64,000 nucleotides of DNA from Escherichia coli (GTDB lineage Bacteria; Pseudomonadota; Gammaproteobacteria; Enterobacterales; Enterobacteriaceae), in NCBI RefSeq assembly GCF_030013205.1, contig NZ_CP122648.1; one strand, given 5' to 3'. Positions 1,944 through 38,961 of this stretch are shown piece after piece. The first letter of the stretch is position 1. The number at the start of each line of letters is the position of its first letter. Both the position numbers and the translations under genes were made by a program. The notes under the pieces were generated by a model, which worked only from the letters and a program-made list of their open reading frames with translations, was not told the DNA's origin and searched no databases.

Positions 1944-3035
1944 ATGCGTTTTCTGCGCCGACCAATATCGCTGCGCCAACGGCTGATATTGACCATTGGG
2001 GCCATTTTGTTGGTGTTTGAGCTGATCAGCGTCTTCTGGCTATGGCATGAAAGTACCGAGCAGATTCAGCTGTTTGAGCAGGCGCTACGCGACAATCGCA
2101 ACAACGATCGCCACATCATGCGTGAGATCCGCGAGGCGGTCGCCAGCCTGATCGTCCCCGGCGTCTTTATGGTCAGCCTGACGCTATTTATCTGCTATCA
2201 GGCGGTACGCCGCATCACCCGCCCGCTGGCGGAGCTGCAAAAAGAGCTGGAAGCGCGCACCGCCGACAACTTAACGCCCATTGCCATTCACAGCGCCACC
2301 CTCGAAATCGAAGCGGTGGTTTCGGCGTTAAACGATCTGGTCAGTCGCCTGACCAACACGCTGGATAACGAAAGGTTGTTTACCGCTGACGTCGCGCACG
2401 AACTGCGAACGCCACTGGCGGGGGTGCGTTTGCATCTGGAACTGCTGGCGAAAACGCATCACATTGATGTAGCACCGTTAGTGGCACGGCTTGATCAGAT
2501 GATGGAGAGCGTCTCCCAGCTGCTGCAACTGGCGCGTGCCGGACAGTCATTTTCTTCCGGTAATTATCAACATGTAAAACTGCTGGAAGATGTCATTCTC
2601 CCCTCGTATGACGAACTCAGTACCATGCTCGACCAGCGACAGCAAACCCTGCTATTGCCAGAGAGCGCCGCCGACATCACCGTTCAGGGTGATGCAACCC
2701 TGCTGCGGATGTTATTGCGAAACCTGGTAGAAAACGCCCATCGTTACAGCCCGCAAGGCAGCAACATTATGATTAAGCTGCAAGAAGATGGCGGAGCGGT
2801 CATGGCTGTTGAAGATGAAGGACCGGGTATTGATGAGAGTAAATGCGGGGAGTTGAGTAAAGCATTTGTACGTATGGACAGCCGTTATGGCGGGATTGGT
2901 CTGGGGTTAAGTATTGTCAGCCGCATTACACAGTTGCATCACGGGCAGTTTTTCCTGCAAAACCGGCAAGAGACTTCCGGCACGCGGGCCTGGGTACGGC
3001 TGAAGAAAGATCAGTACGTGGCAAACCAGATATAA
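1944..3035 (+). CDS. basS: Sensor histidine kinase BasS/PmrB
   Basis: ORF ending at TAA 3033-3035 with H-box (ADVAHELRTPLAG) and ATPase motifs; ATG at 1944 gives 363 aa; an upstream in-frame TTG at 1935 is an alternative start. Confidence 0.9.
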   Translation: MRFLRRPISLRQRLILTIGAILLVFELISVFWLWHESTEQIQLFEQALRDNRNNDRHIMREIREAVASLIVPGVFMVSLTLFICYQAVRRITRPLAELQKELEARTADNLTPIAIHSATLEIEAVVSALNDLVSRLTNTLDNERLFTADVAHELRTPLAGVRLHLELLAKTHHIDVAPLVARLDQMMESVSQLLQLARAGQSFSSGNYQHVKLLEDVILPSYDELSTMLDQRQQTLLLPESAADITVQGDATLLRMLLRNLVENAHRYSPQGSNIMIKLQEDGGAVMAVEDEGPGIDESKCGELSKAFVRMDSRYGGIGLGLSIVSRITQLHHGQFFLQNRQETSGTRAWVRLKKDQYVANQI

Positions 3036-3100
3036 AGAAAGCTGCTGACCACCAGCACGCTGAACACGGTAGTTAAACTTTCATAAACACGGTTTTTCAT
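3011..3100 (-). CDS. pmrR: Small membrane protein PmrR (29 aa), antisense-overlapping basS 3' end
   Basis: Reverse complement of 3011-3100 translates MKNRVYESLTTVFSVLVVSSFLYIWFATY*; GGAGG 8 nt upstream of ATG; not in the supplied ORF track (too short); overlaps last 25 nt of basS on opposite strand. Confidence 0.8.
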   Translation of the reverse strand: MKNRVYESLTTVFSVLVVSSFLYIWFATY

Positions 3101-3104
3101 TGCA

Positions 3105-3130
3105 CTCTCCTCCGTTAACCTGGAGGAGAG
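3105..3130 (-). other. Perfect 9-bp-stem hairpin (ctctcctcc-N8-ggaggagag) containing the pmrR Shine-Dalgarno
   Basis: Inverted repeat read directly from sequence; 3' arm on minus strand includes GGAGG located 8 nt before pmrR ATG; no U-tract follows on either strand. Confidence 0.6.
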
Positions 3131-3144
3131 TATGCGCGTCAGAG

Positions 3145-3161
3145 ATTAAGTGAACCTTAAG
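3145..3161 (-). promoter_or_regulatory. PmrA-box-like direct repeat (CTTAAG-N5-CTTAAT on minus strand) upstream of pmrR
   Basis: Hexamer direct repeat separated by 5 bp matches YTTAAK-N5-YTTAAK PmrA/BasR consensus; lies between proP stop and pmrR start. Confidence 0.55.
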
Positions 3162-3170
3162 ACTTCAATT

Positions 3171-5856: not shown

Positions 5857-8081
5857 TATCGTTCTGCCGTGAAAAGTGTTTGAATATCATCGCGTAACAG
5901 CTGAGCGTCGATGTAAATCCAGCTGTGAGTCATCACAGCCTGCTGCAATTGCTGCTGCATCAGCCTGACCACCGATTCATTTTGTTGACGCAGAGCCAGG
6001 CTTTCGCGTAAACGCGTCTGTAATTCCGTCAAACATGAAGCGAACTCAGCGAAAAAAGTATTCATGCCTGCCGTAACAGATTCATCGACCTGCTCTGCCA
6101 AAACTTTAGCCATTTGTTGGCAATAAAGATCGACTTCTGCGCTTAATGCTCGTTGCAACACACTGTAATCAACCGTCTCTGTCGGGGATTTCTCATTTCC
6201 CCGTCCCCAGTCGGGCTGATTCAACCAGCGCGAAAAAGTCTCACGCACAACGCCTAAACGCGTGCTCTGCTCGTCCGTTGCTTCCTGGCGCGAAATGACT
6301 TCACTGAACAGCTGGCGAGTGTTGAAGTGGGGAACTGCGCCGTGAAAAACAGGAAAATGAAACCCAGGACGAAACCCTGACTCGCTCAATTCCATTTTGA
6401 TTTGTTGCTCAATGGGGCGAATAACATCGGTTAACACCCGGCAAAGGGTGGATTCCAGCTCGGCAAAACGCAGCGTAAAGTCGCGACTGATGGTGTTCTG
6501 CGCCGTCTGTAACAGTGTCTCACAGCGGGTACGAATCTCGCTTAACGGCTCCGAATCATCCTGAAACAAGGCGGCAAACTGCGCATTCAGCGCATCTTGC
6601 TGTTGACGCAGAAAGTGGTTGGCGGAGGTCAGGGCCAGCTCGATTTCATGTTTAATCTCGCCGCTCACCTGCGCCTGATTGAGTTGCAATAGCTGCAAAC
6701 TTTCTTCGACCTGATGGATATTTTGCCGCAATTGTTCACAAGCGACGTTTAACCCGTGCGCACGAAAATCCAGGTATTCCCGCGCCTGCTGCGCGTAATT
6801 CAACAGTTTATGCACGGCAGATCGCAGAGCATACAACGAGGCGTTAGCGTAAGCGGCATGAAGCAACGCCTGAATTGGCTGGGCGAACAGCGAATCTTCC
6901 CACAACTGATCGGCAGCATGACGAATATGTTCGAGGTCAGCCAGATCGGCATGACGCCAGCGCCTGCCGAGCGCGGCATGGGCAAAATCTTCCACCCAGC
7001 GTTGTTGCTCTGGCGGTGGTAACTTACCGTTGTTGGCTAACTCATGGCGCGCCCGATTCGCCAGGTAGCCCCACATCGACGACACCGGAAATATCTGCTG
7101 TGGCGTAATACAGCCTTTCATCAGCGTCCCGGAAATCAGTGCCCGCACCTGGTCGGCGTCGTCACTGTTACGATCCTGTTGATCGAACTTATTGACCAGC
7201 ACATACAGCGGCACCGATTGCCCCACCGCCAAAATCGCCTCACGGACCTCTTCATCGGAGATCGATTTCAGTTGCGTATAATCCAGCACCGCCAGTACCG
7301 CCGAGGCGCGTGCCAGCTGCTGGTTAAGCATTTTTTGCAGATGCGGTTGCCCGGCTTCATTTGGCCCGGGGGTATCCAGTAACGTCAATTGACCGGGATA
7401 ACTCTCCAGCCCCGCCAGATGGACAAACTCCACTTCAATCACGGGAATATGCTCAATGGCGGCGTAAGCAGAAAAAGGAAAATCGACGTCCAGCGCCTTC
7501 GCCAGTCGCACCAAATCATTCAAACTTTTCAGACAATGAAAAATAGGCTGGGCACCCAGATAATATTTTTCGAAAGCGACGCCATTTTCGATCCGCTGCA
7601 TAAGCGCACGCATATCTTTATCTATTTCCAGCACATCGGTCAGATGCTTAATATCGCAATCACGCAGGCGCTGTTGTAATTTTTGAATTAAACAATCGAT
7701 TGGCGCGACATGTGAAAAATGCAGTACCGGTTCCTTTTGCCCGGGCGTATGGCGAATAAGCGTCGGCAGCGCAGTCATTGGGCGATTACGATTAGGCAAA
7801 ACCTCCGTACCAACAATGGCATTAATGGTGGTTGATTTCCCTGCTTTCATGGTACCGACAATCGCCAGCACCATTTCCAGTCGGGAAATTTTACGCAACT
7901 CATTATTCAGCATCGCGTGACGTTCGGCGATATTAGGCTGACTCCAGGGTAAAGCCAGTTGTGGCGCATCGTCTCCGGGGACAGAGAGAGGCATTTTTTC
8001 CAGTAACTGCAACTGTTGGCGAGAAAGCTGTAACAGGCGTTCAGCCTCCTGACTTAACTCATACAGGGTCTGTGTGTACAT
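5853..8081 (-). CDS. crfC: Dynamin-like GTPase CrfC (YjdA)
   Basis: ORF 5853-8123 minus; P-loop GTPase motif (GTMKAGKSTTINAIVG); true start taken as ATG at 8079-8081 (MYTQTLYELSQ...) giving 742 aa, preceded by AAGGAAG; the track's further 14 codons upstream run into IS1. Confidence 0.9.
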   Translation of the reverse strand: MYTQTLYELSQEAERLLQLSRQQLQLLEKMPLSVPGDDAPQLALPWSQPNIAERHAMLNNELRKISRLEMVLAIVGTMKAGKSTTINAIVGTEVLPNRNRPMTALPTLIRHTPGQKEPVLHFSHVAPIDCLIQKLQQRLRDCDIKHLTDVLEIDKDMRALMQRIENGVAFEKYYLGAQPIFHCLKSLNDLVRLAKALDVDFPFSAYAAIEHIPVIEVEFVHLAGLESYPGQLTLLDTPGPNEAGQPHLQKMLNQQLARASAVLAVLDYTQLKSISDEEVREAILAVGQSVPLYVLVNKFDQQDRNSDDADQVRALISGTLMKGCITPQQIFPVSSMWGYLANRARHELANNGKLPPPEQQRWVEDFAHAALGRRWRHADLADLEHIRHAADQLWEDSLFAQPIQALLHAAYANASLYALRSAVHKLLNYAQQAREYLDFRAHGLNVACEQLRQNIHQVEESLQLLQLNQAQVSGEIKHEIELALTSANHFLRQQQDALNAQFAALFQDDSEPLSEIRTRCETLLQTAQNTISRDFTLRFAELESTLCRVLTDVIRPIEQQIKMELSESGFRPGFHFPVFHGAVPHFNTRQLFSEVISRQEATDEQSTRLGVVRETFSRWLNQPDWGRGNEKSPTETVDYSVLQRALSAEVDLYCQQMAKVLAEQVDESVTAGMNTFFAEFASCLTELQTRLRESLALRQQNESVVRLMQQQLQQAVMTHSWIYIDAQLLRDDIQTLFTAERY

Positions 8082-8164
8082 AGAAAATTCTTCCTTAAAG
8101 CAAATTTTGGGTGATGCTGCCAACTTACTGATTTAGTGTATGATGGTGTTTTTGAGGTGCTCCA

Positions 8165-9259: not shown

Positions 9260-9595
9260 ATGTCATTACCACACTGCCCAAAATGCAACTCCGAATACAC
9301 CTACGAAGATAACGGCATGTACATCTGCCCGGAATGTGCCTACGAATGGAACGACGCAGAACCTGCACAGGAAAGCGACGAGCTGATCGTTAAAGATGCT
9401 AACGGCAATCTGCTGGCTGACGGCGACAGCGTTACCATCATTAAAGATCTGAAGGTGAAAGGTAGCTCTTCGATGCTGAAAATTGGCACCAAAGTGAAAA
9501 ACATCCGCCTGGTTGAAGGCGACCATAACATCGATTGCAAAATCGACGGTTTTGGTCCGATGAAACTGAAATCTGAGTTTGTGAAAAAGAACTGA
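9260..9595 (+). CDS. yjdM: Zinc-ribbon protein YjdM (PhnA)
   Basis: 111-aa protein [30 protein letters not shown]... with GAGG 10 nt upstream of ATG 9260; track ORF 9113-9595 is a 5' extension. Confidence 0.9.
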
Positions 9596-9613
9596 TTGTA
9601 TTGTGATCGGTAA

Positions 9614-9689
9614 GCCGGATAAGGCGCTCGCGCCGCATCCGGCAACGATGCCGACTGCCTGATGCGACGCTGACCGCGTCTTATCAGGC
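9614..9689. repeat. Pair of REP elements (BIME-like) between yjdM and yjdN
   Basis: gccggataaggcgctcgcgccgcatccggc and gcctgatgcgacgctgaccgcgtcttatcaggc, canonical REP palindromes in opposite orientation. Confidence 0.65.
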
Positions 9690-9754
9690 TTCCCTCTCAT
9701 CTGTATAAATTTCGAACTACACTTAACTGGCTTCTCTTAACTGAGGTCACCATC

Positions 9755-34298: not shown

Positions 34299-35761
34299 TC
34301 AATCGTCAACTTTCACGCCTGCTGTTGTGCAGCATTCTCGGCAGCACGACGCTGATTTCCGGCTGTGCCCTGGTACGTAAGGATTCTGCGCCTCATCAAC
34401 AGCTCAAACCGGAACAAATCAAACTGGCCGATGATATTCATCTTGCCAGCTCCGGTTGGCCGCAGGCGCAGTGGTGGAAACAACTCAATGACCCGCAGTT
34501 GGATGCCCTGATCCAACGGACGCTAAGTGGTTCACACACCCTCGCCGAAGCGAAACTGCGGGAAGAAAAAGCGCAGTCCCAGGCCGATTTGTTAGATGCT
34601 GGTTCACAGTTGCAGGTGGCAGCGTTAGGGATGCTCAACCGCCAACGTGTCTCGGCGAACGGCTTTTTAAGCCCTTATGCGATGGATGCGCCCGCACTGG
34701 GGATGGACGGGCCGTACTATACGGAAGCCACAGTCGGTTTGTTTGCCGGACTGGATCTCGATTTGTGGGGTGTGCATCGCTCAGCGGTTGCCGCTGCCAT
34801 TGGCGCGCATAATGCCGCGCTGGCAGAAACCGCAGCAGTAGAGCTATCGCTGACCACGGGCGTAGCGCAGCTTTATTACAGTATGCAGGCCAGCTATCAG
34901 ATGCTCGATCTGTTAGAACAAACTCGCGATGTGATTGATTACGCGGTAAAAGCGCACCAGAGTAAAGTGGCGCACGGTCTGGAAGCGCAAGTGCCTTTCC
35001 ACGGCGCGCGGGCACAGATTCTGGCGGTCGATAAACAAATTGCTGCCGTTAAAGGGCAAATCTCCGAAACGCGAGAATCTCTGCGCGCATTGATTGGCGC
35101 GGGAGCCAGCGATATGCCGGAGATCAGACCGGTGGCATTACCGCAAGTCCAGACCGGCATTCCGGCGACACTCTCTTATGAGTTGCTCGCCAGACGCCCG
35201 GATCTGCAAGCCATGCGCTGGTATGTTCAGGCGTCATTAGATCAGGTGGATTCCGCGCGGGCGCTGTTCTATCCGAGCTTTGATATCAAAGCGTTTTTCG
35301 GCCTGGACTCTATCCACCTGGATACCTTATTCAAAAAAACCAGTCGCCAGTTCAACTTTATCCCGGGTCTGAAATTGCCGCTGTTTGACGGTGGACGGTT
35401 GAATGCCAATCTCGAAGGCACTCGCGCCGCCAGCAACATGATGATTGAACGTTACAACCAGTCAGTGCTGAATGCGGTGCGCGACGTTGCCGTCAACGGC
35501 ACGCGTCTGCAAACGCTTAACGACGAGCGAGAGATGCAGGCTGAACGCGTGGAAGCAACGCGCTTCACCCAGCGCGCTGCCGAGGCCGCCTATCAACGCG
35601 GCTTAACCAGCCGCTTACAGGCCACCGAAGCCCGGTTGCCAGTGCTTGCCGAGGAGATGTCATTACTGATGCTGGACAGCCGCCGGGTGATCCAAAGCAT
35701 TCAGTTGATGAAATCGCTGGGCGGCGGGTATCAGGCAAGTCCCGTCGTCGAGAAAAAATAA
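34295..35761 (+). CDS. mdtP: Outer-membrane efflux channel MdtP (TolC/OprM family)
   Basis: 488 aa with lipoprotein signal (…TTLISGCAL); ATGA overlap with mdtO. Confidence 0.92.
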   Translation: MINRQLSRLLLCSILGSTTLISGCALVRKDSAPHQQLKPEQIKLADDIHLASSGWPQAQWWKQLNDPQLDALIQRTLSGSHTLAEAKLREEKAQSQADLLDAGSQLQVAALGMLNRQRVSANGFLSPYAMDAPALGMDGPYYTEATVGLFAGLDLDLWGVHRSAVAAAIGAHNAALAETAAVELSLTTGVAQLYYSMQASYQMLDLLEQTRDVIDYAVKAHQSKVAHGLEAQVPFHGARAQILAVDKQIAAVKGQISETRESLRALIGAGASDMPEIRPVALPQVQTGIPATLSYELLARRPDLQAMRWYVQASLDQVDSARALFYPSFDIKAFFGLDSIHLDTLFKKTSRQFNFIPGLKLPLFDGGRLNANLEGTRAASNMMIERYNQSVLNAVRDVAVNGTRLQTLNDEREMQAERVEATRFTQRAAEAAYQRGLTSRLQATEARLPVLAEEMSLLMLDSRRVIQSIQLMKSLGGGYQASPVVEKK

Positions 35762-35769
35762 AATGTCTG

Positions 35770-35800
35770 CCGCGTGATGGCTGTCACGCGGTATTTCGTT
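35770..35800 (+). terminator. Rho-independent terminator after mdtP
   Basis: ccgcgtga-tggctg-tcacgcgg hairpin followed by tatttcgttt. Confidence 0.65.
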
Positions 35801-35845
35801 TCGTCACGTCAAAACTGACGACAGCCTGTTTTTCGTCAGAGTTTT
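35798..35845 (+). promoter_or_regulatory. FhlA upstream activating sequence of fdhF (inverted TCGTCA/TGACGA repeats)
   Basis: tttcgtcacgtcaaaactgacga ... ttttcgtcaga: repeated TCGTCA/TGACGA half-sites ~60-110 bp upstream of the sigma54 promoter element. Confidence 0.55.
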
Positions 35846-35891
35846 GAATAAATAGTGCCCGTAATATCAGGGAATGACCCCAAATAAAATG

Positions 35892-35907
35892 TGGCATAAA
35901 AGATGCA
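35892..35907 (+). promoter_or_regulatory. Sigma-54 (RpoN) promoter of fdhF (-24 GG / -12 GC)
   Basis: TGGCATaaaagATGCA matches TGGCAC-N5-TTGCA consensus, ~50 bp upstream of fdhF ATG. Confidence 0.75.
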
Positions 35908-35958
35908 TACTGTAGTCGAGAGCGCGTATGCGTGATTTGATTAACTGGAGCGAGACCG

Positions 35959-38106
35959 ATGAAAAAAGTCGTCACGGTTTGCCCCTATTGCGCATCAGGT
36001 TGCAAAATCAACCTGGTCGTCGATAACGGCAAAATCGTCCGGGCGGAGGCAGCGCAGGGGAAAACCAACCAGGGTACCCTGTGTCTGAAGGGTTATTATG
36101 GCTGGGACTTCATTAACGATACCCAGATCCTGACCCCGCGCCTGAAAACCCCCATGATCCGTCGCCAGCGTGGCGGCAAACTCGAACCTGTTTCCTGGGA
36201 TGAGGCACTGAATTACGTTGCCGAGCGCCTGAGCGCCATCAAAGAGAAGTACGGTCCGGATGCCATCCAGACGACCGGCTCCTCGCGTGGTACGGGTAAC
36301 GAAACCAACTATGTAATGCAAAAATTTGCGCGCGCCGTTATTGGTACCAATAACGTTGACTGCTGCGCTCGTGTCTGACACGGCCCATCGGTTGCAGGTC
36401 TGCACCAATCGGTCGGTAATGGCGCAATGAGCAATGCTATTAACGAAATTGATAATACCGATTTAGTGTTCGTTTTCGGGTACAACCCGGCGGATTCCCA
36501 CCCAATCGTGGCGAATCACGTAATTAACGCTAAACGTAACGGGGCGAAAATTATCGTCTGCGATCCGCGCAAAATTGAAACCGCGCGCATTGCTGACATG
36601 CACATTGCACTGAAAAACGGCTCGAACATCGCGCTGTTGAATGCGATGGGCCATGTCATTATTGAAGAAAATTTGTACGACAAAGCGTTCGTCGCTTCCC
36701 GTACAGAAGGCTTTGAAGAGTATCGTAAAATCGTTGAAGGCTACACGCCGGAGTCGGTTGAAGATATCACCGGCGTCAGCGCCAGTGAGATTCGTCAGGC
36801 GGCACGGATGTATGCCCAGGCGAAAAGCGCCGCCATCCTGTGGGGCATGGGTGTAACCCAGTTCTACCAGGGCGTGGAAACCGTGCGTTCTCTGACCAGC
36901 CTCGCGATGCTGACCGGTAACCTCGGTAAGCCGCATGCGGGTGTAAACCCGGTTCGTGGTCAGAACAACGTGCAGGGTGCCTGCGATATGGGCGCGCTGC
37001 CGGATACGTATCCGGGATACCAGTACGTGAAAGATCCGGCTAACCGCGAGAAATTCGCCAAAGCCTGGGGCGTGGAAAGCCTGCCTGCTCATACCGGTTA
37101 TCGCATCAGCGAGCTGCCGCACCGCGCAGCGCATGGTGAAGTGCGTGCCGCGTACATTATGGGCGAAGATCCGCTGCAAACTGACGCGGAACTGTCGGCA
37201 GTACGTAAAGCCTTTGAAGATCTGGAACTGGTTATCGTTCAGGACATCTTTATGACCAAAACCGCGTCGGCGGCGGATGTCATTTTACCGTCAACGTCAT
37301 GGGGCGAGCATGAAGGCGTGTTTACTGCGGCTGACCGTGGCTTCCAGCGTTTCTTCAAAGCGGTTGAACCGAAGTGGGATCTGAAAACGGACTGGCAGAT
37401 TATCAGTGAAATCGCCACCCGTATGGGTTATCCGATGCACTACAACAACACCCAGGAGATCTGGGATGAGTTGCGTCATCTGTGCCCGGATTTCTACGGT
37501 GCGACTTACGAAAAAATGGGCGAACTGGGCTTCATTCAGTGGCCTTGCCGCGATACTTCAGATGCCGATCAGGGGACTTCTTATCTGTTTAAAGAGAAGT
37601 TTGATACCCCGAACGGTCTGGCGCAGTTCTTCACCTGCGACTGGGTAGCGCCAATCGACAAACTCACCGACGAGTACCCGATGGTACTGTCAACGGTGCG
37701 TGAAGTTGGTCACTACTCTTGCCGTTCGATGACCGGTAACTGTGCAGCACTGGCGGCGCTGGCTGATGAACCTGGCTACGCACAAATCAATACCGAAGAC
37801 GCCAAACGTCTGGGTATTGAAGATGAGGCATTGGTTTGGGTGCACTCGCGTAAAGGCAAAATTATCACCCGTGCGCAGGTCAGCGATCGTCCGAACAAAG
37901 GGGCGATTTATATGACCTACCAGTGGTGGATTGGTGCCTGTAACGAGCTGGTTACCGAAAACTTAAGCCCGATTACGAAAACGCCGGAATACAAATACTG
38001 CGCCGTGCGCGTCGAGCCGATCGCCGATCAGCGCGCCGCCGAGCAGTACGTGATTGACGAGTACAACAAGTTGAAAACTCGCCTGCGCGAAGCGGCACTG
38101 GCGTAA
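35959..38106 (+). CDS. fdhF: Formate dehydrogenase H (FDH-H), selenocysteine-containing molybdoenzyme; in-frame TGA at 36376-36378 decoded as Sec140
   Basis: Track ORFs 35959-36378 and 36427-38106 are in the same frame, separated only by one TGA; combined 715-aa protein has N-terminal 4Fe-4S Cys motif (CPYCASGC) and ...VDCCARV-U-HGPSVAGLHQSVGNGAMSN...; SECIS hairpin immediately 3' of the TGA. Confidence 0.93.
36379..36425 (+). other. SECIS (selenocysteine insertion sequence) stem-loop within fdhF mRNA
   Basis: cacggcccatcggttgcaggtctgcaccaatcggtcggtaatggcg directly after the UGA; contains the GGUUGCAGGUCUGCACC apical stem-loop recognised by SelB. Confidence 0.85.
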
Positions 38107-38120
38107 TACAGTCCTTTCTA

Positions 38121-38147
38121 CAGCCTCCTTTCGGAGGCTGTTTTTTT
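38121..38147 (+). terminator. Rho-independent terminator of fdhF
   Basis: cagcctcc-tttc-ggaggctg followed by ttttttt. Confidence 0.85.
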
Positions 38148-38199
38148 ATCCATTCGAACTCTTTATACTGGTTACTCCCTACCCAATCGTATTATCAAA

Positions 38200-38889
38200 A
38201 TGAAAAAAATTATCGCATTGATGTTGTTTTTAACATTCTTTGCCCACGCGAACGACTCCGAGCCTGGCAGCCAGTATTTAAAGGCAGCAGAGGCCGGGGA
38301 CCGACGCGCACAATATTTTCTTGCCGACAGCTGGTTTAGCTCCGGCGATTTGAGCAAAGCCGAATATTGGGCACAGAAAGCCGCCGACAGCGGTGATGCT
38401 GATGCCTGCGCGCTGCTGGCGCAGATCAAAATCACCAATCCGGTCAGTCTGGACTATCCACAAGCAAAAGTTCTTGCAGAGAAAGCGGCGCAAGCGGGGA
38501 GTAAAGAAGGTGAAGTAACGCTGGCGCATATTCTGGTAAATACGCAAGCGGGTAAACCGGATTATCCAAAGGCGATTTCGCTGTTAGAAAACGCTTCGGA
38601 AGATCTGGAGAACGACTCTGCCGTCGATGCCCAAATGCTGCTTGGTTTGATTTACGCCAACGGCGTGGGCATTAAGGCCGACGATGACAAGGCAACCTGG
38701 TATTTCAAACGCAGCTCTGCGATTTCCCGAACCGGTTATTCCGAGTACTGGGCGGGAATGATGTTCTTAAACGGTGAAGAAGGTTTTATCGAGAAGAACA
38801 AGCAAAAGGCGCTGCACTGGTTGAATCTGAGCTGTATGGAAGGGTTTGATACCGGGTGTGAAGAGTTTGAAAAATTAACTAACGGTTAA
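38200..38889 (+). CDS. yjcO: Sel1/TPR-like repeat lipoprotein/periplasmic protein YjcO
   Basis: 229 aa, signal peptide, repeated ...A..G...A...L..A...G motif (Sel1-like). Confidence 0.85.
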   Translation: MKKIIALMLFLTFFAHANDSEPGSQYLKAAEAGDRRAQYFLADSWFSSGDLSKAEYWAQKAADSGDADACALLAQIKITNPVSLDYPQAKVLAEKAAQAGSKEGEVTLAHILVNTQAGKPDYPKAISLLENASEDLENDSAVDAQMLLGLIYANGVGIKADDDKATWYFKRSSAISRTGYSEYWAGMMFLNGEEGFIEKNKQKALHWLNLSCMEGFDTGCEEFEKLTNG

Positions 38890-38893
38890 GGTA

Positions 38894-38961
38894 GGCCTGA
38901 TAAGACGCGTTAAGCGTCGCATCAGGCATCCACACATTGCCGGGTGGATATCCCCGGCAAT
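38894..38961. repeat. REP element plus adjacent small hairpin between yjcO and gltP (convergent gene ends)
   Basis: ggcctgataagacgcgttaagcgtcgcatcaggc then ttgccgggtggatatccccggcaa. Confidence 0.55.

Follow-up and report, generated by a model that had tools for sequence, protein, structure and literature searches.

The in-frame UGA140 of Escherichia coli fdhF and the SECIS hairpin that follows it

The fdhF locus and its reading frame

The window, the whole 64-kb stretch of Escherichia coli DNA that was analysed, contains fdhF, which the ORF list of the window divides into two ORFs, 35959–36378 (139 aa) and 36427–38106 (559 aa). The start positions of the two ORFs are 468 nt apart (36427 − 35959), which corresponds to 156 codons, and the two ORFs are therefore in the same reading frame. 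Translation of 35959–38106 in this single frame gives 716 codons, in which the sole internal stop is codon 140, a TGA at 36376–36378, while the terminal stop, at 38104–38106, is the true stop of fdhF. The frame is already open from 36379 onward, and the downstream ORF starts at 36427 for no other reason than that the first ATG past the TGA is located there. The offset of 156 codons and the one-frame translation bear out the claim of an earlier, sequence-only reading of this DNA that two same-frame ORFs are separated by a single TGA, and leave no frame shift between the two segments.

The 715-residue product, written with X at position 140, is 100% identical to E. coli formate dehydrogenase H (PDB 1AA6 chain A, residues 1–715, 1669.8 bits), and the same solved enzyme was also matched as PDB 1FDI, 1FDO, 2IV2, and 7Z0T. 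The deposited structure sequence likewise carries X at residue 140, with which the TGA of the window is aligned, confirming the proposal that this codon is Sec140 of formate dehydrogenase H. The match is full-length and includes both the N-terminal 4Fe-4S cysteine motif and Sec140, as is proper to a formate dehydrogenase H (FdhF) of the Mo-bisPGD DMSO-reductase superfamily. Formate dehydrogenase H is part of the formate-hydrogenlyase complex, and Sec140 is a ligand of the molybdenum in the enzyme. We assign the fdhF CDS, encoding 715 residues plus the stop with UGA140 read through, to 35959–38106 (+), on the basis of the one frame with a single internal TGA, the identity to 1AA6, and the 2148-nt length of fdhF in RefSeq. 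The UGA codon 140 itself (36376–36378, +) is assigned as an active-site codon recoded to selenocysteine, on the basis of the translation, the alignment with X140, and published work in which UGA140 of E. coli fdhF serves experimentally as a Sec codon (PMC4513850).

The DNA from 35800 to 38200 (a 2401-nt query) matches several complete chromosomes of E. coli with 100% identity, and the same DNA in the matching records is annotated as fdhF, located between mdtNOP and yjcO-gltP-nrf, which identifies the window as chromosomal DNA of E. coli. RefSeq (PGAP) carries a single intact CDS that is not flagged as a pseudogene and that some records name 'selenocysteine-containing'. The 139-aa and 559-aa fragments nevertheless occur, in exactly this form, in public protein collections, on at least 1000 contigs each, indicating that many non-PGAP pipelines split fdhF. 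The expectation that automated annotation would truncate the gene or call it a pseudogene thus holds for many other pipelines but fails for RefSeq PGAP.

The split of fdhF in a mechanical ORF list, and the storage of both fragments as separate proteins in public sets, would also be expected if the TGA were a true nonsense mutation and fdhF a pseudogene, from which only the 139-residue fragment, or two polypeptides, would be made. Several observations argue against a defective gene. The TGA and its flanks recur, with an identity of ≥99%, in 5419 of the 5426 complete genomes of E. coli, and are also found in other genera; the solved, active enzyme has a non-standard residue exactly at position 140; and the TGA is followed by a dedicated SECIS and by 575 codons that stay open and are identical to the crystallised protein. 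The pseudogene, or nonsense allele, was rejected on the grounds of species-wide conservation and identity to the crystallised enzyme, and we regard its probability as negligible.

The flanks of fdhF contain candidate transcription signals. A terminator-like hairpin is located downstream of mdtP (35768–35793), and two inverted repeats are positioned upstream of the fdhF promoter on the + strand, one, TCGTCA...TGACGA, at 35801–35821 (found by eye) and the other, TCAAAACT/AGTTTTGA, at 35809–35816 and 35840–35847. We take the inverted repeats of 35801–35847 to be, probably, the FhlA upstream activating sequence. A σ54-type −24/−12 promoter-like site, TGGCATAAAAGATGCA, is positioned at 35892–35907 (+), 52 nt 5′ of the fdhF ATG. 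Nothing else in the 64-kb window matches TGGCAY-N5-WTGCW, and, as 0.57 matches are expected by chance, such a match is weak when taken alone. Transcription of fdhF is σ54/FhlA dependent, and the putative site fits this mode of control; a search for a σ70-like site in 35700–38300 returned none. On the other side of the gene, an intrinsic-terminator-like element (38120–38151, +), composed of a hairpin (38120–38141) with a 9-bp stem (6 GC pairs) and of the run TTTTTTT that follows it, is located 14 nt past the fdhF stop.

Other RNA elements lie elsewhere in the window. Rfam naRNA4 (REP-derived, CssrE) matches at 9613–9690 (+) with 87.5 bits, above gathering, and at 38894–38959 (both strands), between yjcO and gltP, with 44.8 bits, below gathering; the two matches are ordinary REP elements. 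Two known enterobacterial small RNA genes are located at 3004–3169 (−) and 56721–56861 (+), with scores well above gathering (STnc630, 181 bits; SraL, also RyjA, 153 bits).

The SECIS hairpin 3′ of UGA140

The segment 36371–36425 (+) comprises a full SECIS of 55 nt, in which an outer 5-bp helix encloses the UGA. It matches Rfam SECIS_2 (RF01988) over model positions 1–55 of 55, with an E-value of 1.1e-18 in a 4-kb search and 1.8e-17 in the whole window. The score of 87.1 bits (gathering 70) establishes family membership and is no independent proof of function, the model having probably been built from these enterobacterial fdhF sequences. At minimum energy (−19.7 kcal/mol), these 55 nt are predicted to fold into the SECIS_2 consensus structure. 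Match and fold agree with the sequence-only reading, which had placed a bacterial SECIS stem-loop 3′ of the TGA and quoted for it a string, cggcccatcggttgcaggtctgcaccaatcggtcgg, that we locate at 36381–36416.

The minimal E. coli SECIS is a minihelix of 17 nt, spaced 11 nt away from the UGA, in which U17, G23, and U24 are critical; a 40-nt SECIS and the roles of U17, G23, and U24 in SelB contact have been described as well (PMC8659212). The minihelix, its spacing, and the three critical residues are all present in the window. The UGA is in frame directly 5′ of the hairpin, and the frame runs through it. An 11-nt spacer, CACGGCCCAUC (36379–36389, +), read from the sequence, connects the UGA to the SelB-binding minihelix and makes up the 5′ strand of the lower stem, in line with the published spacing (PMC8659212). 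The 17-nt minihelix, GGUUGCAGGUCUGCACC (36390–36406, +), is defined by the sequence, the Rfam match, and the fold. Specifically, the bulged U17 is 36392, which is unpaired in the literature register, and the apical loop GGUC (36397–36400) supplies G23 (36398) and U24 (36399). The minihelix begins 11 nt after the UGA, and a foldable stem-loop is present, as the earlier reading had required. The window element differs from the SECIS_2 consensus at one variable outer-helix position and at no other: 36372 is a U, against a C in the majority of other genera, making the outer pair U-G instead of C-G.

Folding energy does not set the hairpin apart from shuffled sequences. For 36376–36425 the z-score is −0.08, and 90 of 200 shuffles fold as well; for 36371–36425 it is −1.23, and 25 of 200 shuffles are as good. 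Folding energy was dropped as evidence for the SECIS because these z-scores are non-discriminating, and the case that the structure exceeds chance therefore rests on the covariance-model score, on synonymous recoding, and on the comparison of Sec-type with Cys-type loci.

For the synonymous-recoding null, the peptide RV-U-HGPSVAGLHQSVGNGA was kept fixed, codons were drawn randomly in 20,000 recodings, and the pairs of the model were counted. Under uniform codon choice, none of the 20,000 recodings attains the observed 20 of 20 pairs (mean 12.8), and under fdhF codon usage 0.28% of them do (mean 15.5); 5–18% of the synonymous recodings fold at least as stably, in whatever structure. The high means are what would be anticipated if the hairpin simply arose from encoding the conserved peptide HGPSVAGLHQSVGNGA, with no RNA-level function, but the rarity of the complete set of pairs, under either codon choice, argues against such a by-product, as do the Cys-type homologues considered below.

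Conservation of the element and its restriction to Sec-type loci

Of the 5426 complete genomes of E. coli that were searched, 5419 contain a match to the fdhF region, and in 5418 the match extends over no less than 80% of the 2401 nt queried. The 121 nt around the UGA are ≥99% identical in 5419 of the 5420 matching records, and over the whole 2401-nt region 1367 records are 95–99% identical. The sole outlier record has four changes, all at third codon positions and all synonymous in the translated alignment; one of them converts the outer-helix U-G pair to C-G, and the minihelix is untouched. Four fdhF matches are on plasmid-labelled records of complete E. coli assemblies, one genome has two copies, and 7 of the 5426 genomes have no match.

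A search of the 64-kb window for tRNA genes, tRNA-Sec, and sel genes returned none. Among the complete E. coli genomes, selC (tRNA-Sec) is present in 5424 of 5426, selA-selB in 5425 of 5426, and selD in 5425 of 5426. From this E. coli-wide presence, at roughly 99.9%, we infer that the source genome carries the sel genes.

To compare loci across species, we scanned the motif A-R-V-[TGA/TGC/TGT]-H-G-P-[S/T]-V-A over 100,044 species genomes, which gave at least 120 stretches of DNA. Among the matches listed, those of FdhF type (MQKF...CCARV) comprise 13 with TGA and 13 with TGC or TGT, counts that are not population frequencies; the 13 TGA loci include two E. coli records obtained separately. The 13 TGA-type loci among the matches listed keep 16–20 of the 20 SECIS pairs, whereas the 13 Cys-type (TGY) loci, which encode a near-identical peptide, have 8–15 of 20, most with positive energy in the model structure. 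The separation of the pair counts is complete (Mann-Whitney p = 6.6e-6, a statistic that ignores phylogeny). SECIS_2 exceeds its gathering score in 9 of the 11 TGA loci to which it was applied and in 0 of 13 Cys loci, in which the site has no Rfam match. The two TGA loci missed by SECIS_2, L123 and L024 (Haemophilus), keep 16–17 of 20 pairs and the GGUC loop, and the misses reflect the high gathering score and not the absence of a SECIS.

Because Cys-type homologues with the same HGPSVAGL have fewer pairs, the hairpin follows the TGA codon and not the peptide. Together with the recoding null, this leaves only a vanishingly small chance that the hairpin is a by-product of the peptide that it encodes. 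Sec-type (TGA plus SECIS) and Cys-type (TGY, no SECIS) fdhF are found together in several Citrobacter, Enterobacter, and Superficieibacter genomes (paired loci L021/L022, L031/L032, L043/L046, L053/L054, L068/L067, and L081/L079). Since several genomes hold both types of copy, the difference in the hairpin tracks the codon and not the lineage.

Formal covariation among the Sec-type orthologues detects 1–2 compensatory pairs, with an observed score that 9 to 53 of 500 shuffles also attain; these statistics are weak because the element is near-invariant among the sampled Sec-type orthologues. The minihelix is identical in 12 of the 13 TGA-type loci. In Haemophilus haemolyticus, four positions of the minihelix differ and the loop is unchanged; with U17 as the bulge, the four positions make two compensatory double changes, G-C to U-A and U-A to A-U. 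The recoding null, the orthologue comparison, and the two compensatory pairs of Haemophilus indicate that the SECIS structure has been kept in evolution beyond the constraint of coding.

The same comparison bears on the possibility that the UGA is read through without selenocysteine, by a near-cognate Trp-tRNA or Cys-tRNA, and that the only role of the hairpin is to slow the ribosome or to block RF2. Liu et al. reportedly described, in 1999, low-level Sec-independent read-through at the fdhF SECIS, which counts in favour of Sec-less read-through, and the unremarkable stability of the hairpin means that the structure by itself is no proof of a specific protein-binding role. However, the SelB determinants (minihelix and GGUC loop) are exact in 12 of 13 Sec-type orthologues, while in Haemophilus the change is compensatory and the loop is kept, and both determinants are missing from Cys-type homologues. 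Furthermore, virtually every E. coli genome carries the sel genes, and SelB- and Sec-dependent insertion has been obtained with the fdhF fragment both in vitro and in vivo (PMC4513850). We consider Sec-less read-through extremely unlikely.

The scan also returned features that concern other loci. Among the matches listed (loci L005–L124), the FdnG/FdoG-type matches (NQARV-U-HGPTVA) have TGA as the active-site codon in each case. The Cys-type fdhF locus of Clostridium thailandense (L036) contains two riboswitches that score above gathering, one of the Moco (molybdenum/tungsten cofactor) type at 9388–9504 (−) and one of the purine type at 2781–2878 (+). At the Enterobacter cloacae fdhF locus (L061), an Rfam match to sok antitoxin RNA (7960–8108, +, 87.1 bits) is located ~1.9 kb downstream of the SECIS and points to a putative hok/sok-type module beside fdhF.

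Decoding of UGA140 and its relation to known systems

The explanation that best accounts for the locus, and that we hold to be nearly certain, is that the window carries E. coli fdhF, in which UGA140 is decoded as selenocysteine by means of the SelB-bound SECIS hairpin 3′ of it. The frame, the protein identity, the hairpin with its spacing, the specificity for TGA orthologues, and the prevalence of the sel genes were computed here, while SelB binding and Sec insertion are taken from the literature.

In the known mechanism, applied to this locus, the SECIS would form on the mRNA just 3′ of UGA140, and SelB, with GTP and Sec-tRNASec (from selC, selA, and selD), would bind the apical minihelix through its C-terminal domain, which would contact the bulged U and the loop residues G23 and U24 (PMC8659212). 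The observed 11-nt spacing would put the ternary complex at the ribosomal A site upon the arrival of UGA140, a function known from the literature. Sec would then be inserted in competition with RF2-mediated termination, with an efficiency of ~30–40% in vivo for the exact fdhF fragment, and the ribosome would melt the hairpin and go on to the stop at 38104–38106, after which Sec140 would ligate molybdenum. The published fragment comprises UGA140 and a SECIS spanning codons 141–153, and the SelB and Sec dependence of insertion, like the in vivo recoding of 30–40%, was reported for the identical K-12 sequence (PMC4513850).

The allele in the window might differ from that of K-12 in recoding efficiency or regulation, either through the U-G outer pair at 36372 or through a hairpin that would act as a selenium-dependent brake coupling fdhF translation to transcription. 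Against such allele-specific behaviour, neither the element nor the protein departs from the characterised sequence of K-12 and of PDB, and we consider it very unlikely.

The closest known system is UGA140/SECIS of E. coli K-12 fdhF (RF01988; PDB 1AA6/1FDO/2IV2), with which the window shares a 100% identical protein, the 11-nt spacing, the bulged U, the GGUC loop, and the neighbourhood mdtNOP-fdhF-yjcO-gltP-nrf, with no substantive difference. The FdnG/FdoG SECIS (SECIS_3 type) likewise has an in-frame UGA in ARV-U-HGP followed by an intragenic SelB-binding hairpin, but its hairpin differs in sequence and register, and its downstream peptide is HGPTVASLAPTFGRG. Membership of the window element in SECIS_3 was rejected, as its score of 35.8 bits falls short of the SECIS_3 gathering score, 63. 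Cys-type FdhF homologues (Citrobacter, Enterobacter, Klebsiella, Yersinia, and Clostridium) are of the same family and have a near-identical active-site peptide, CCARV-C-HGPSVAGL, but carry a cysteine codon in place of the UGA and no SECIS. Eukaryotic and archaeal SECIS elements are likewise RNA structures that redefine UGA as Sec, yet they are located in untranslated regions, contain a kink-turn, and act through SBP2/eEFSec, whereas the element in the window is positioned within the CDS right after the UGA and is of the type bound directly by SelB (established knowledge; PMC8659212).

The UGA140/SECIS of fdhF is already known and fully characterised, as the founding case of selenocysteine recoding in bacteria. 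Selenocysteine recoding in fdhF has been studied since the 1980s, and structures of the enzyme have been solved. The locus thus has no discovery value, and its minor value is for annotation, in that naive ORF callers cut fdhF at UGA140. A scan for an in-frame TGA plus a SECIS is a useful quality-control rule, and the genomes that carry both a Sec-type and a Cys-type fdhF provide a ready natural control for SECIS detection. The comparison of Sec-type with Cys-type loci is a clean positive control, in which the rule separates real recoding sites from homologues with nearly the same peptide.
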